Below, one piece after another: positions 19,961-62,290 of a DNA stretch of 64,000 nucleotides. A program made the position numbers and the translations under genes. The notes below the pieces were generated by a model. The model was not told the origin of the DNA. It ran no database searches and was given only the letters and a program-made list of their open reading frames with translations. How positions within the stretch are numbered: the stretch's first letter is position 1; each line of letters begins with the position of its first letter. The stretch covers positions 29,044 through 93,043 of the forward strand of contig JARIGQ010000001.1 in assembly GCA_029288775.1 (NCBI GenBank), in the 5' to 3' direction. The DNA comes from Candidatus Nomurabacteria bacterium. Lineage in GTDB: Bacteria > Patescibacteriota > Minisyncoccia > Phycocordibacterales > UBA5272.

Positions 19961-19989
19961 TTGACTTCAAAAGGTTCTTCTGATAAGAT
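19961..19989 (+). promoter_or_regulatory. sigma70 promoter for the 23S-tRNA-5S unit
   Basis: TTGACT-17 bp-TAAGAT with an extended TGn; boxA-like gttcgttgacaa at ~20112. Confidence 0.7.
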
Positions 19990-20579
19990 TATGAGCACTG
20001 TTAATGATGAAGAACACGAAAATTACTAGCTAAAAACCGCAGGCAAGTGACGTTTCGTTACGCGCCCGCCGGTAAGGCGGATTTTCTTTTCTAAAAATTG
20101 TTACAGGGGAGGTTCGTTGACAATAGAATCCCGTGCACAACACGCGCAACAATACTGTTATCCAGTAGTAGTAATATTCACTGGGGTCTAGCGGAGTTTG
20201 TAGTACGGGGAACATGAAAGATAATCAATGCACAAGTAGCTTGTAAACCTGCTTGTGCAGCACGCACATAACAATGGAGCGGTCCGGAGTTATGTGGTAG
20301 TTATGTTTCCTAATAGGAACATAAGAGCATACGGTGGATGCCTAGGCTCTAACAAGCGATGAAAGACGTGATCAGGCGGCGATACGCTTCGGGGAGGTGC
20401 CTAATAACCTTCGATCCGGAGATTTCTGAATGGGGAAACCTCATACGAGTAATGTTGTATGGTCTTAGAGAGCATTCTCAAGACGCGCACCCAGGGAAGT
20501 GAAACATCTCAGTACCTGGAGGAAAAGAAAACAAAAGTTATTCTGCAAGTAGCGGCGAGCGAAAACAGAGAAGCCCAAA

Positions 20580-21048
20580 CCAGCACACCACTTTGCTTTC
20601 AATTGATATCGTTCATGTATGTTTATAAGGGGAAAAAAGTTCTTTGCCCGCCTACCAAGGCGTGCACATATCCGATTCATCGGATATGGCGGGTCTCAAT
20701 TAGGGAAGCAGCCATGAGGTGAGCCTCTGTGAGACCGAATGAGATACCAGAGGTTGACGTACGCTTGTTGGTGACGTTGACCGGAGCGCCCGAAAGCGCA
20801 AGCTAACGGGAACAACGCACACGAAATCTCTCGTGTGCGTTGACAATGCCGTAAGGCTTCAAGGTGCTGACAAAAATGCCTTACGGAAGCTGGCCAGGCT
20901 GTGAACGATCGCATCGGCTTGGTTGGAAGGTGAGAGGCCGCAGGAACCCCCGCTCTTTAAAGTTTTGCCGATTATAAATCGGCTCTCCTTATAAACATAC
21001 ATGAACGAATACGATATCAATTGAATTGAAGGCAAAGTGGTGTGCTGG
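20580..21048 (+). other. Intervening sequence in 23S domain I: ~50-bp closing stem enclosing a structured ORF-less core
   Basis: Arm 20580-20632 is the reverse complement of 20985-21048 (two small bulges). Replaces the short helix between cccaaacc and ggggtagtaagac. Confidence 0.85.
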
Positions 21049-21251
21049 GGTAGTAAGACAGAAACGTAGATTTCTAGAAGAGTTACAAAAGGTAAATATA
21101 GACTAAGTTGTTGGAAAGCAACGCCACAGAAAGTGATAGCCTTGTAGTCGAAATATTTATCTCTCTTTTGTTTCTGATCTTGAGTAGTTCGAGACACGAA
21201 TAGCTCGGATGAATCAGCCGGAACTAACCGGTAAGGCTAAATATTGTTAGA

Positions 21252-21297
<46 letters not shown>

Positions 21298-22397
21298 GGA
21301 AGGGGAGTGAAATAGAACTGAAACCGTATGTTTACAAAGAGTAGAAGAGGTATTTATACCTCGACTGCGTGCCTATTGAAGAATGAGCCAACGAGTTGTA
21401 GGTTACTGCAGGCTAAGTGGTATAAAGTCACGGAGCCATAGCGAAAGCAAGTGTTAATAGCGCGAACCAATTGTAGTAGCTTACAGACCCGAAGCCGGAT
21501 GAGCTTACCATGAGCAGGGTGAAGCAGTGCGAAAGCACTGTGGAGGCCCGAACCAGTAGGTTGTACGACTCCTTTGGATGACTTGTGGTAAGGAGTGAAA
21601 AGCTAATCGAATTCGGTAATAGCTGGTTCTCTCCGAAATAGTTTTTGGACTAGCGTCATGTGTTCCCTTTGGGGGTAGAGCACTGGAAGGTTTTGACTAG
21701 TAGAAATACGGCAACACCTATCAAACTCCGAATACCAAAGGTTAAAAACATGGCAGTAAGACCACGGGGGCGAAGCTCCGTCGGTCAAAAGGGAAACAGC
21801 CCAGATCTCAAGTTAAGGTCCCTAAGTATAGATTAAGTGTATAGCGAGGAGGTGGAGTTTCATTGACAATGAGGATGTTGGCTTAGAAGCAGCCATCATT
21901 GAAAGAAAGCGTAACAGCTCACCCATCGAGAGACTCTGCGCCGTAAATGATCGGGACTAAAATCTATCACCGAAACTGAGGGCTTCCTATTTATAGGGAG
22001 CGGTAGGAGAGTGTTCCACTCTGCGCTGAAGCGGAAGGGGTAACCCACCGTGGAGCGTGTGGAAGTACGAATGTTGGCACAAGTAACCGCAAGGAAGGTG
22101 AGATCCCTTCCCGCCGAAAGAATAAGGTTTCCTTTGCAATGATTGTCAGCGAAGGGTTAGTCGGGCCTAAGGAGATGGCAAACGCCGGATCCGATGGACA
22201 TAAGGTTAATATTCCTTAACTTGGTAGTAATGTGATGGGATGACGGGGTGTAGTATGTAAAGCGTCTTATTGGATTGACGTTTATTGTGTAAGTGGCTTG
22301 TGTAGGGAAATCCGCACGAGTATACCGCAAGCACCGTATGAAGGTGAGGGGCAACCCGAGCCAATTTTACAAAGCACGCCTCCGAGAAAAGTCTCTA

Positions 22398-22490
22398 CAT
22401 TCTGTGAATACAGAACGTCTTCTTGTGCCTTTTACTAGGTACGAGCTTGCTTGTATCTAGATCATCTAGGTACAAGAAGATGCTTAAGTT
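22398..22490 (+). other. 23S expansion segment (~90 nt) in domain III
   Basis: Extra hairpins between ccgagaaaagtctcta and ccgtaccgcaaaccgacacagg: ttctgt/acagaa, tcttcttgtgcct/aggtacaagaaga, ctaggtacgag/cttgtatctag. Confidence 0.7.
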
Positions 22491-22772
22491 ACTATTAATC
22501 CGTACCGCAAACCGACACAGGTATTCGAGTCGAGTAGACTAAGGCGAACGAGTGATATCTCCCTAAGGAACTAGGCAAAAAAGCGATCGTAAGTTAGCGA
22601 TAAGATCTGCCCATAGCAATATGGGCCGCAGCGAAAGTTTCCCTAGCGACTGTTTACCAAAAACACAGCTTCCTGCGAACACGTAAGTGGATGTATAGGA
22701 GGTGACGCCTGACCAATGCGGGAAGGTCAAATATCGGCGGTGCTTCGGTGCTGGATGATATAAGCCCCCGTC

Positions 22773-22804
<32 letters not shown>

Positions 22805-23018
22805 TCTGATCATATCTATGATGTGGTCAGAACGGACTAGGACGGTTATAGGGAATTTGGTTTAAATAAAGTAAAAACAGTCTAATTGTGTACGCTTCAT
22901 AAAGCTACCTGTTGCATCGAAATATGCATTCAGTCCAATGTGATTAACGAGAGACCAACGTCACACATCTGACCATTAGGTTGAAGATGAAGATAGAGTC
23001 CAACTTGAGGAATAGTTG
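22805..23018 (+). mobile_element. Compact, atypical group I intron at the 23S L1931-equivalent site (214 nt, no ORF)
   Basis: Interrupts GGTCCTAAGGT^AGCGAAATTCC, U before the 5' site, terminal G; P8 catct..agatg and S-like gaagatagagtcc. Confidence 0.8.
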
Positions 23019-23588
23019 AGCGAAATTCCTTGTCTGGTAAGTTCAGACGTGCACGAATGGCGTAACGACTGGGGAACTGTCTCAGGGAGTAGCTCGGTGA
23101 AAATACAGTGGGGGTGAAGATGCCCCCTAGCTGCAGATAGACGAAAAGACCCCGTGAGCTTTACTCTAGCTTGGTATTGCAAGTGTTCAATTACTGCGTA
23201 GTGTAGTGGTGAGAGGTTGAAGGTATGATTTCGGTTGTACTGGACTCGTCGATGAAACAGCCATCTGTAATTGGGCACTTGCTAACGTGAACGGAAAAAA
23301 CGTTCGCAGACAGTATCTGGTGGGGAGTTTAACTGGGGCGGTTTCCTCCCAAAAGGTAACGGAGGAGTATATTAAGGTCATCTAGGCGCGAATGGAAACC
23401 GTGCCGATAGCGCAAGGGCATAAGATGGCTTGACTGTGAGACGGGCATGTCGAGCAGACGCGAAAGCGGGTCCTAGTGAACCTACTCTTGGCTTTAGACG
23501 CCGGAGCAGATTAACGGATAGAAGCTACCACGGGGATAACAGGCTAGTTGTGCCTAAGAGTTCATATCGACGGCACAGTTCGGCACCT

Positions 23589-23942
23589 TAACTTTAATCG
23601 GGGTGCGTCAGGAGCAATCCTGTAGCAACACATGTACAATCGTCAAATAAATAATATGTACACAAGAAATCTTGGCTTATAACGGTGAAACCCTTATGCA
23701 TGAACACCATAAGGGCAATACCGTGGGAAGTTTATATGTAAGAAAGCGATCACTCCAATTGTATTGGAGAGCTGCACACCTCAAAATGTGATTACATGTA
23801 TAACCTCGTAGAGACTTGTCACGCATGTGACGGAGTTGTGGTTCAAAGAAGATAAACCATAGCTAATACGCCAACGCCGCCTTTGATCGGGCGGATGAAG
23901 ATATAGTCCGATCCTTCCAGTAATGGAAGACAAATACGACAG
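23589..23942 (+). mobile_element. Group I intron (IA-like) at the 23S L2500-equivalent site (354 nt, no ORF)
   Basis: Interrupts GGCACCT^CGATGTCGG. IGS atcggggtgc forms P1 with a U-G wobble and P10. R gtagagact, S gaagatatagtcc, terminal G, extra stems after P7. Confidence 0.92.
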
Positions 23943-24088
23943 CGATGTCGGCTCATCTTATCCTGGTGGTGGAGAAGCTACCAAGGGTTTGGCTGTTCGC
24001 CAATTAAAAAGATACGTGAGCTGGGTTCAAACCGTCGTGAGACAGGTTGGTTTCCTATCTTCTGCAGCCGTTCGAATATTGAGAAGAT

Positions 24089-24119
<31 letters not shown>

Positions 24120-24474
24120 TGACCTCTGGTGTGTGGGCTCTAGCGCCAGCTGGACCGCCCAGTAGCTATGTCGGGAATGGATAACCTCTGAAAGCATCTA
24201 AGAGGGAAGCCAACTTCAAGATAAGTATTCGTTGAGGGTCGTAAGAGATGATTACGTTGATAGGATCTAAGTGTACGCACAGTAATGTGTTTAGCTGAGG
24301 ATTACTAATTACCCGAATCCTATTAGGAAACATGATTATCACAAATAATCATCGTGCATCTTTCATGTGGTGAGAGGAGGTTGAAGAGTCTGATACCAGC
24401 AATGGTCGCTTACAATTTGGCTTCCTCTCACCACGTGAAGATTTGGTTCTTTCATGTTGTGAACGATATATGAT

Positions 24475-24650
24475 GGGGATGTAGCTCAGTTGGTAGAGCG
24501 TTTCCCTGGGGGTTGGGTGTCAACGCCCGACTTGTCTCCCAGCTAGTTGCCGAGTACAAAAGGCTTAGGCAAAAGGACTGCCGCCGACGAGGTGGAGGAA
24601 GGGGGAGAGCAGGGGGAAGGTCGCAGGTTCAAATCCTGCCATCTCCACCA
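24475..24650 (+). tRNA. tRNA-Ala interrupted by a 100-nt insert in the anticodon (most likely GGC after removal)
   Basis: Acceptor GGGGATG/CATCTCC with G3-U70, A73 and CCA; full D arm; T arm gcagg-ttcaaat-cctgc. Removing 100 nt gives a canonical 76-nt cloverleaf. Confidence 0.8.
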
Positions 24651-61922: not shown

Positions 61923-61960
61923 TGAAAAAGCTCTCCGGTAGGAGGGCTTTTTCATATATG

Positions 61961-62231
61961 TCTTTGTCTGTAAGCCGAATTCTGTTTTTGTGTAGACATG
62001 TATCTTGTCCCGCCATTGCTGTCGAGATCTAGCGACACTCCTTAGTATTGCTAATAAGGCACGGTCTTGCACACGCGTATGTATTTAGCCGTTTCAGCCG
62101 GACTGAACCGGATCGTTTCTGTTCGCAACACGGTGGTCACCCACGACGGGCGTTACCCGCTACGTTTCCACAGTGAAGTGGTGTGTGTTCGGACTTTCCT
62201 CACCGTTTCCGGCGCGTCTACCCAACAAAGA
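61961..62231 (-). ncRNA. rnpB: RNase P RNA (compact, ~270 nt)
   Basis: Minus strand: GAGGAAAGTCC (CR I), ACAGAAA, TGAAACGG, GCAAG, AACAGAATTCGGCTTA (CR V); P1 tctttgttg/cagacaaaga; TATACT box upstream. Confidence 0.92.
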
Positions 62232-62290
62232 ACTTTTTTAGTATACCATATATTACAAAAAAATCAAGTTTGTGCTATACTATGAAAACG

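Follow-up and report, generated by a model that had tools for sequence, protein, structure and literature searches.

The closest described counterparts of the element reported here are the intervening sequences (IVSs) that RNase III excises from the 23S rRNA of Salmonella, Leptospira, Coxiella burnetii (helix 45), and alphaproteobacteria (helix 9), in which the tip of a 23S helix is replaced, as set out in the available text of PMC4990558 and PMC8708148. Helix 25 is the third classical site beside helices 9 and 45 (PMC4990558, available text). These IVSs measure 428 to 444 nt, and that of Coxiella has a terminal stem of 28 bp that RNase III cuts mid-stem; in E. coli the excised RNA shows a half-life of about 4 min (PMC4990558, available text). 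RNase III itself holds about 22 bp (available text of PMC6212723). The insert described here is 465 nt long with a terminal stem of 52 bp, and like these IVSs it replaces a helix tip, is sporadic among relatives, and lies in a host with RNase III. Unlike them, it lies at helix 15 rather than at helix 9, 25, or 45, lacks an S23p open reading frame (ORF), and has as its loop a 333-nt multibranch fold, and its excision is a prediction.

The host is a member of the Patescibacteria (CPR), for which Tsurumaki et al. (2024; PMC11270868, available text) report 968 inserts in 23S rRNA, 469 of them ORF-less, non-intron, and mostly shorter than 200 nt; 15 non-intron inserts carry GIY-YIG. Our insert shares a CPR host, non-intron character, and the lack of an ORF with their unclassified inserts, but neither structure nor a shared frame with exchanged cargo is described in the available text of that study. 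Its site is probably their 23IS1, judging from a figure label near positions 200-300 (PMC11270868, available part). Helix 15 is also expanded in Mycobacterium and seven other bacteria, where it is solvent exposed near the L1 stalk; according to the available text of PMC5737476 this expansion is short and conserved and kisses helix 16a, whereas ours is long and patchy. Group I introns likewise interrupt CPR 23S genes, and two apparently lie further down the same gene, but our insert has no Rfam group I match, occupies a variable peripheral site, and is built around a long terminal stem rather than a conserved core. H15 is not mentioned in the available text of PMC9297842, and a search of a largely open-access library turned up no paper dealing with helix-15 excision or with CPR inserts that contain folded RNA cargo. 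We regard the insert as real and place it in a known class that has been little described, of which it is an unusually elaborate example.

A long stem at helix 15 of the 23S rRNA gene

The 692-kb host genome has unlinked 16S and 23S genes. Within the window, by which we mean the whole stretch of 64,000 nucleotides that was analysed, the Rfam LSU match places the 23S gene at 20311 to 24327 (+), 4017 nt including insertions, with a promoter-like site of its own at 19961-19989 and the 16S gene on another contig. The 465-nt insert (20582 to 21046, +) lies wholly within this gene, at the loop of a hairpin at model positions of about 274-296, and both flanks align normally in the Rfam LSU alignment. 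In the usual numbering this hairpin is helix 15. Most genomes of the same genus have in its place a helix 15 hairpin of only 18 to 20 nt.

The insert is closed by an outer stem of 16 + 15 + 21 = 52 bp, formed by a 52-nt 5' arm (20582 to 20633, +) and a 3' arm (20984 to 21046, +) that carries both bulges, of 6 nt and 5 nt; the region as a whole folds with a z score of -13. A preliminary description made from the sequence had proposed a near-perfect stem of about 50 bp and an IVS-like anatomy inside 23S, and both proposals hold: normal rRNA stands on either side of a long terminal stem, so that an extended stem-loop takes the place of the helix tip. The unbroken 21-bp segment (20613-20633/20984-21004, +) is a predicted target of RNase III, on the strength of the duplex of about 22 bp given in the available text of PMC6212723 and by length alone. 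A side hairpin (20967 to 20983, +) stacks on the 3' arm.

RNase III is intact in the host (230 aa, signature motif present). Its gene, rnc, lies between a gene for a four-helix-bundle IVP protein (PF05635) and a gene called NusB-like from its N terminus, the three forming a row at G000:C10:48966-51070 (L120, L130). The NusB-like gene has a C-terminal extension that looks NUDIX-like by eye, and a long, imperfect inverted repeat surrounds the IVP gene. Contig C11 has another IVP gene, which is broken. Neither a Y1 transposase, nor SRP54, nor a GIY-YIG of the helix-15 kind was found in the host genome.

Several further features of the 23S gene and its surroundings were observed. The 23S leader (window 20030-20310; L001-L020) contains blocks strongly conserved across the genus and a variable hairpin slot just 5' of the processing stem. 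An extra branched hairpin of ~80 nt lies in 23S domain III (window about 22400-22490), and two more insertions, too short for a nuclease gene, lie at about 22805-23020 and 23590-23945. These two have group I intron R/S-like motifs, and in relatives the same part of 23S gives Rfam group I matches below the gathering score. The 23S-5S spacer holds a tRNA-like gene (window 24475-24650, +) with normal acceptor, D, and T arms, whose anticodon arm is enlarged by ~100 folded bases; ARAGORN reads the gene as Pro-GGG with an intron, and no splicing route for it is evident. Similar spacer genes with 35 to 90 extra bases occur in four same-genus genomes (L268, L274, L271, L289), an inner motif of 30 to 33 nt is common to those of the host, G465, and G030 (0/300 shuffles), and G029 has a normal tRNA-Lys there. 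The 23S-tRNA spacer of G010 contains a 205-nt domain (L289:518-722) with a T-arm-like end followed by a boxA-like motif; it has no Rfam match, no homologue in the 52 other same-genus genomes, and a weak likeness to two helix-15 cores. The host RNase P RNA (window 61955-62233, -) is a short type A molecule of 279 nt without P13/P14, and both short and long forms occur in the genus.

Fold and identity of the enclosed core

The core enclosed by the stem comprises 333 nt (20633-20965) and folds with z scores of -5.85 on the + strand and -3.7 on the - strand. It contains three perfect stems of at least 9 bp, against 0.05 per shuffle and a maximum of 1 in 300 shuffles. G-U pairs account for 16 of its 107 pairs, a use like that of the host's stable RNAs (13/79 in RNase P RNA, 15/129 in tmRNA), and the core therefore looks RNA-selected. 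An unpaired 5' linker (20634 to 20647, +) precedes a 5' half (20645 to 20782, +) of four hairpins or helices, including a borderline candidate for an H-type pseudoknot. The 3' half (20783 to 20956, +) is a multibranch domain with four hairpins and a T-loop-like hairpin, closed by a helix (20783-88/20951-56, +; p 0.76) that is partly overlapped by a 3' linker (20952 to 20966, +). Both linkers resemble boxA, and the core has GNRA-like loops beside the T-loop-like hairpin. The A-run plus GTTCTTT motif of the 5' linker has a single counterpart elsewhere in the genome, at the RNase P RNA 5' terminus, with which the linker is identical over 14 nt (BLAST E 3.2 for the 14-nt match alone), and the 3' linker resembles a motif preceding the spacer tRNA-like gene of G010. 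The sister inserts of G008, G009, and G015, described below, have no boxA-like linkers.

Most hairpins listed in the preliminary description reappear in the minimum-energy fold: catatccga/tcggatatg, cccg/cggg, caacgcacacga/tcgtgtgcgttg, ccgtaaggc/gccttacgg, and gccgat/atcggc all pair with probabilities of 0.95 to 1.0. Two others were not borne out as described, the cccgcc/ggcggg helix costing +11.5 kcal/mol and gcctctg/cagaggt +7.8 kcal/mol (+14.8 kcal/mol together), each overlapping stronger helices, with clashes at 20692-93 and 20752-55. The pairing of ggtctca with tgagacc, offered earlier as a pseudoknot or kissing contact, is a real helix (p 0.96) but an ordinary nested one, and it makes a pseudoknot only jointly with gcctctg/cagaggt (20692-98/20730-36 with 20722-29/20748-55, +). 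The core has one H-type candidate of that kind, which 3.6% of 500 shuffles equal under criteria set afterwards. The suggested gagat/atctc kissing pair is at chance level (40% of 2000 permutations), and the best hairpin loop-loop duplex anywhere in the core is equalled by 25% of 2000 permutations. The tertiary contacts proposed for the core are weak, with the pseudoknot borderline and the kissing pair no better than chance.

The insert has no credible ORF, as had been noted (the longest inside it is 72 aa, on the minus strand), and it contains neither a GIY-YIG or S23p/four-helix-bundle ORF nor a remnant of one. The absence of a group I or II core was also borne out: Rfam covariance models, read up to an E value of 10, gave no match to group I or II introns, known small ribozymes, HEARO, or other Rfam RNAs, the sole match being a chance one of 19 bits. 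Several other identities were considered and rejected. The genome's tmRNA and SmpB lie on C11, and the core does not align to that tmRNA; for SRP RNA there is no Rfam match, in a genome where SRP54 was not found. A collinear likeness to the RNase P specificity domain is visible by eye only, with no nhmmer match and a pairwise score reached by 18/200 shuffles; a specificity-domain model of the genus scores the core at 5.1 bits versus 81.6 for the host's own RNase P. Similarity to pieces of the host's 16S, 23S, 5S, leader, or spacer tRNA-like genes is not significant. For the core of G015, 2/200 shuffles reach the score against 16S and 6/200 that against RNase P, among 48 comparisons. A short motif common to our core, the G008 core, and the G010 spacer domain occurs in only these three places in 650 kb of loci; it was defined from those three, is partly self-complementary, and has pairwise scores reached by 9/200 shuffles, and it may serve as a weak lead.

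DNA searches for homologues of the core found none above chance in 400 genomes of the class (short matches only), none in 300 genomes of the phylum, and none in phages or plasmids. Single-sequence covariance models, which are weak models, found none in the host genome and 52 same-genus genomes, and the assembly holds no second copy. Of the 31 weak BLAST matches in the class, neither the 13 inspected with their surroundings nor the 16 run against Rfam revealed an RNA homologue. The G008 core had no match in 301 phylum genomes, a draw that held no positive control. Pattern scans of viral sequences gave seven matches to a small internal-loop hairpin, with no extended likeness, and one chance match. 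In several phage contigs (among viral contigs L121-L127), small ORFs that look HNH nuclease-like by eye are preceded by a conserved hairpin whose internal loop is symmetric and A-rich and which has no Rfam match. That no core homologue was found weakens the reading of the core as a functional orphan RNA.

Helix 15 among relatives and across the order

The helix 15 region is present in 28 of the 52 other same-genus genomes and was resolved in 26, the contigs of the other two ending at the site. A plain hairpin of 18 to 20 nt occupies helix 15 in 18 of the 26, and the remaining eight have inserts of 52, 84, 128, 140, 140, 165, 288, and 335 nt. Three of these share the frame of our insert: G009 (165 nt), G015 (288 nt), and G008 (335 nt). 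Their 5' arms are homologous to ours, the scores being reached by 0/300 shuffles for G015 and G008 and, more weakly, by 4/300 for G009. Relative to G008, G015, and G009, respectively, 9, 11, and 15 aligned stem pairs have changed on both sides with the helix still closed, counts that are favoured by taking partners from each sequence's own fold; 2 to 4 of 46 stem columns lose pairing. The side hairpin recurs at the same position in all three with a different sequence.

The contents of the frame are another matter. No core of the three relatives aligns to ours above shuffles (144, 137, and 301 of 500 reach the score), their lengths differ, and a covariance model of the 3' half of our core does not recognise them. 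The G008 and G015 cores fold with z scores of -1.9 and 0.1, versus -5.85 for ours. As far as sampled, all three stem-sharing relatives (3/3) thus conserve only the outer stem, the outcome that the preliminary description had named as counting against its proposal of an undescribed structured noncoding RNA or ribozyme; with no core homologue found either, that proposal is unsupported.

On a 19-row tree of the leader plus 23S without helix 15, which omits L009 (contig ending at the site), the four frame carriers require 4 changes, and a single clade of the four is rejected (p-AU 0.0002), in a test run after an earlier tree, itself without three short rows and eight duplicates, had been seen. The frame is therefore sporadic (3/26) and its carriers are scattered, which suggests that helix-15 alleles likely move sideways or give way to plain alleles. 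Contigs G032:C46, G469:C1, and G709:C25 end at or just before helix 15 and may hide more long inserts.

In the order as a whole, 244 of 401 genomes searched had matches, and of 130 high-scoring loci examined, 128 were resolved. Helix 15 ranges near-continuously from 16 to 465 nt among them, our insert being the longest and the 26- to 60-nt class the commonest (52/128 loci), and the site holds GIY-YIG genes, repeats, or hairpins. Five inserts of 302 to 324 nt encode a small GIY-YIG ORF preceded by a -10-like box; four of the ORFs are intact and one is broken, and both of those tested (2/2) pass the Pfam cut-off. An insert of 84 nt shares its basal stem with an ORF-bearing insert but encloses just a hairpin. 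An unbroken helix of 20 to 25 bp is present in 9/9 listed frame or ORF inserts, in 17/41 loci above 100 nt, and in 4/53 of the 26- to 60-nt class, counts that omit L161, L211, and L220 (mis-parsed short helices) and L133, L134, and L147 (repeats). Our arm shows a weak likeness to two GIY-YIG stems (2/300 and 4/300 shuffles, among 101 comparisons).

A basal stem related to this one is also found at helix 25, and one rRNA region has it at as many as three places; records labelled Paceibacterota, Campbellbacteria, Saccharibacteria, or Patescibacteria bear such a stem at helix 15. RNase P RNAs of the genus also have stem-bracketed inserts at helix tips (L327 (G008), L330 (G026), L313, L322, L325, L329); two have GIY-YIG-like ORFs, recognised by eye, and in one RNase P RNA three inserts share a basal stem.

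Origin and meaning of the insert

The stem is homologous and still paired in relatives, the contents differ, the carriers are scattered, and the host encodes an intact RNase III. Because relatives keep the outer stem around unrelated contents, excision by RNase III is likely and the inner fold is likely a passenger, and we give somewhat better than even credence to the insert being an RNase III-excised IVS cassette with a fast-changing folded passenger. The insert would be transcribed with 23S, after which the stem would close and RNase III would cut it within the 21-bp segment, leaving 23S as two unligated pieces held by the helix-15 stump. The released 333-nt core would be a replaceable passenger, presumably then degraded. 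Helix-15 alleles may spread when the conserved flanks recombine, perhaps with help from the GIY-YIG genes found in related stems. What selection would maintain is the stem and a compact, self-folded cargo that does not disturb rRNA folding, rather than a conserved activity or core sequence; conserved frames around unrelated cores agree with this. Several observations stand against this proposal. Excision is opposed by the position of helix 15 outside the classical IVS helices 9, 25, and 45 and by the retained expansion in mycobacteria (PMC5737476, available text). A passenger role sits uneasily with a core that folds far better than those of G008 and G015, uses G-U pairs as an RNA does, and has boxA-like linkers. 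GIY-YIG-aided spread is opposed by the weak link to the GIY-YIG stems and by a host without such a GIY-YIG gene and without a Y1 transposase.

The insert could instead be a giant retained expansion segment, in which helix 15 grew by nested tip insertions and is kept on the 50S surface near the L1 stalk, a reading that we consider unlikely, if a serious one. Helix 15 expansions are retained in Mycobacterium and others (PMC5737476, available text), and unprocessed IVSs are tolerated without blocking ribosome function (PMC8708148, available text). The near-continuous series from 16 to 465 nt across the order, with its commonest class at 26 to 60 nt, speaks for this reading; the inserts of G009, G015, and G008 look like nested steps in one frame, and the core is fully self-folding between intact flanks. 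Yet a 21-bp unbroken duplex coexists with intact RNase III, it is difficult to imagine a mature ribosome with the 300-nt protein-coding inserts that occupy the same site, and scattered carriers with unrelated cores are unlike a vertically grown segment. We are more doubtful of a reading in which the captured cargo is itself a functional structured RNA: RNase III would free one copy of it per ribosome, and its boxA-like linkers would recruit NusB-NusE. The strong, strand-biased fold, the RNA-like G-U use, the borderline pseudoknot (3.6% of shuffles), and the 5' linker that matches the RNase P RNA 5' end over 14 nt and no other genome site all point that way, as do the intact genes carried by related stems; no core homologue emerged from the class, phylum, phage/plasmid, or same-genus searches, however, the sister inserts hold other cores without boxA-like linkers, and the 14-nt match has an E value of 3.2 by itself. 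Equally doubtful is the more general proposal that CPR bacteria use RNase III-cut stems of their single 23S gene as expression slots, the one here releasing, once per ribosome, a pseudoknotted RNA of 333 nt that would be stable, would belong to a new class, and would be loaded with NusB-NusE via its boxA-like ends.

It is improbable that the insert is a new ribozyme, self-splicing or self-cleaving, able to remove itself and rejoin 23S. The size, the multibranch fold, and the T-loop- and GNRA-like loops would suit one, and CPR rRNAs are rich in introns (PMC11270868, available text); but there is no Rfam intron or ribozyme match up to E 10, no core is conserved among relatives, and a catalytic core should not be freely replaceable by ORFs or simple hairpins. 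Least credible of all is an assembly artefact or chimera. The insert is known from a single genome, and no listed sequencing run (as contigs) holds half of the sampled words, the best share being 0.36 with flanks included; against this, the insertion is seamless and in register, a homologous, covarying stem exists in three other genomes, and the core is unique, with no second copy in the assembly.

The cassette reading bears on a large group of elements, ORF-less non-intron inserts being about half of CPR 23S inserts (469/968; PMC11270868, available text). Helix 15 provides a natural series within one helix, from a plain hairpin through a short stem to that stem enclosing three folded cores unrelated to one another, and to related stems with nuclease genes. 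With this series, it becomes directly testable whether such inserts are cut out, which would leave 23S in fragments with helix 15 as a new break point, or kept, which would give supposedly minimal ribosomes expansion segments of eukaryote-like size. If the core were both stable and conserved, it would represent a new way to express a large RNA, although present evidence favours a passenger; were the expression-slot reading true, this would be an rRNA-hosted noncoding RNA in a bacterium. Whether the inserts are cut out or kept, the outcome bears on how expansion segments arise.
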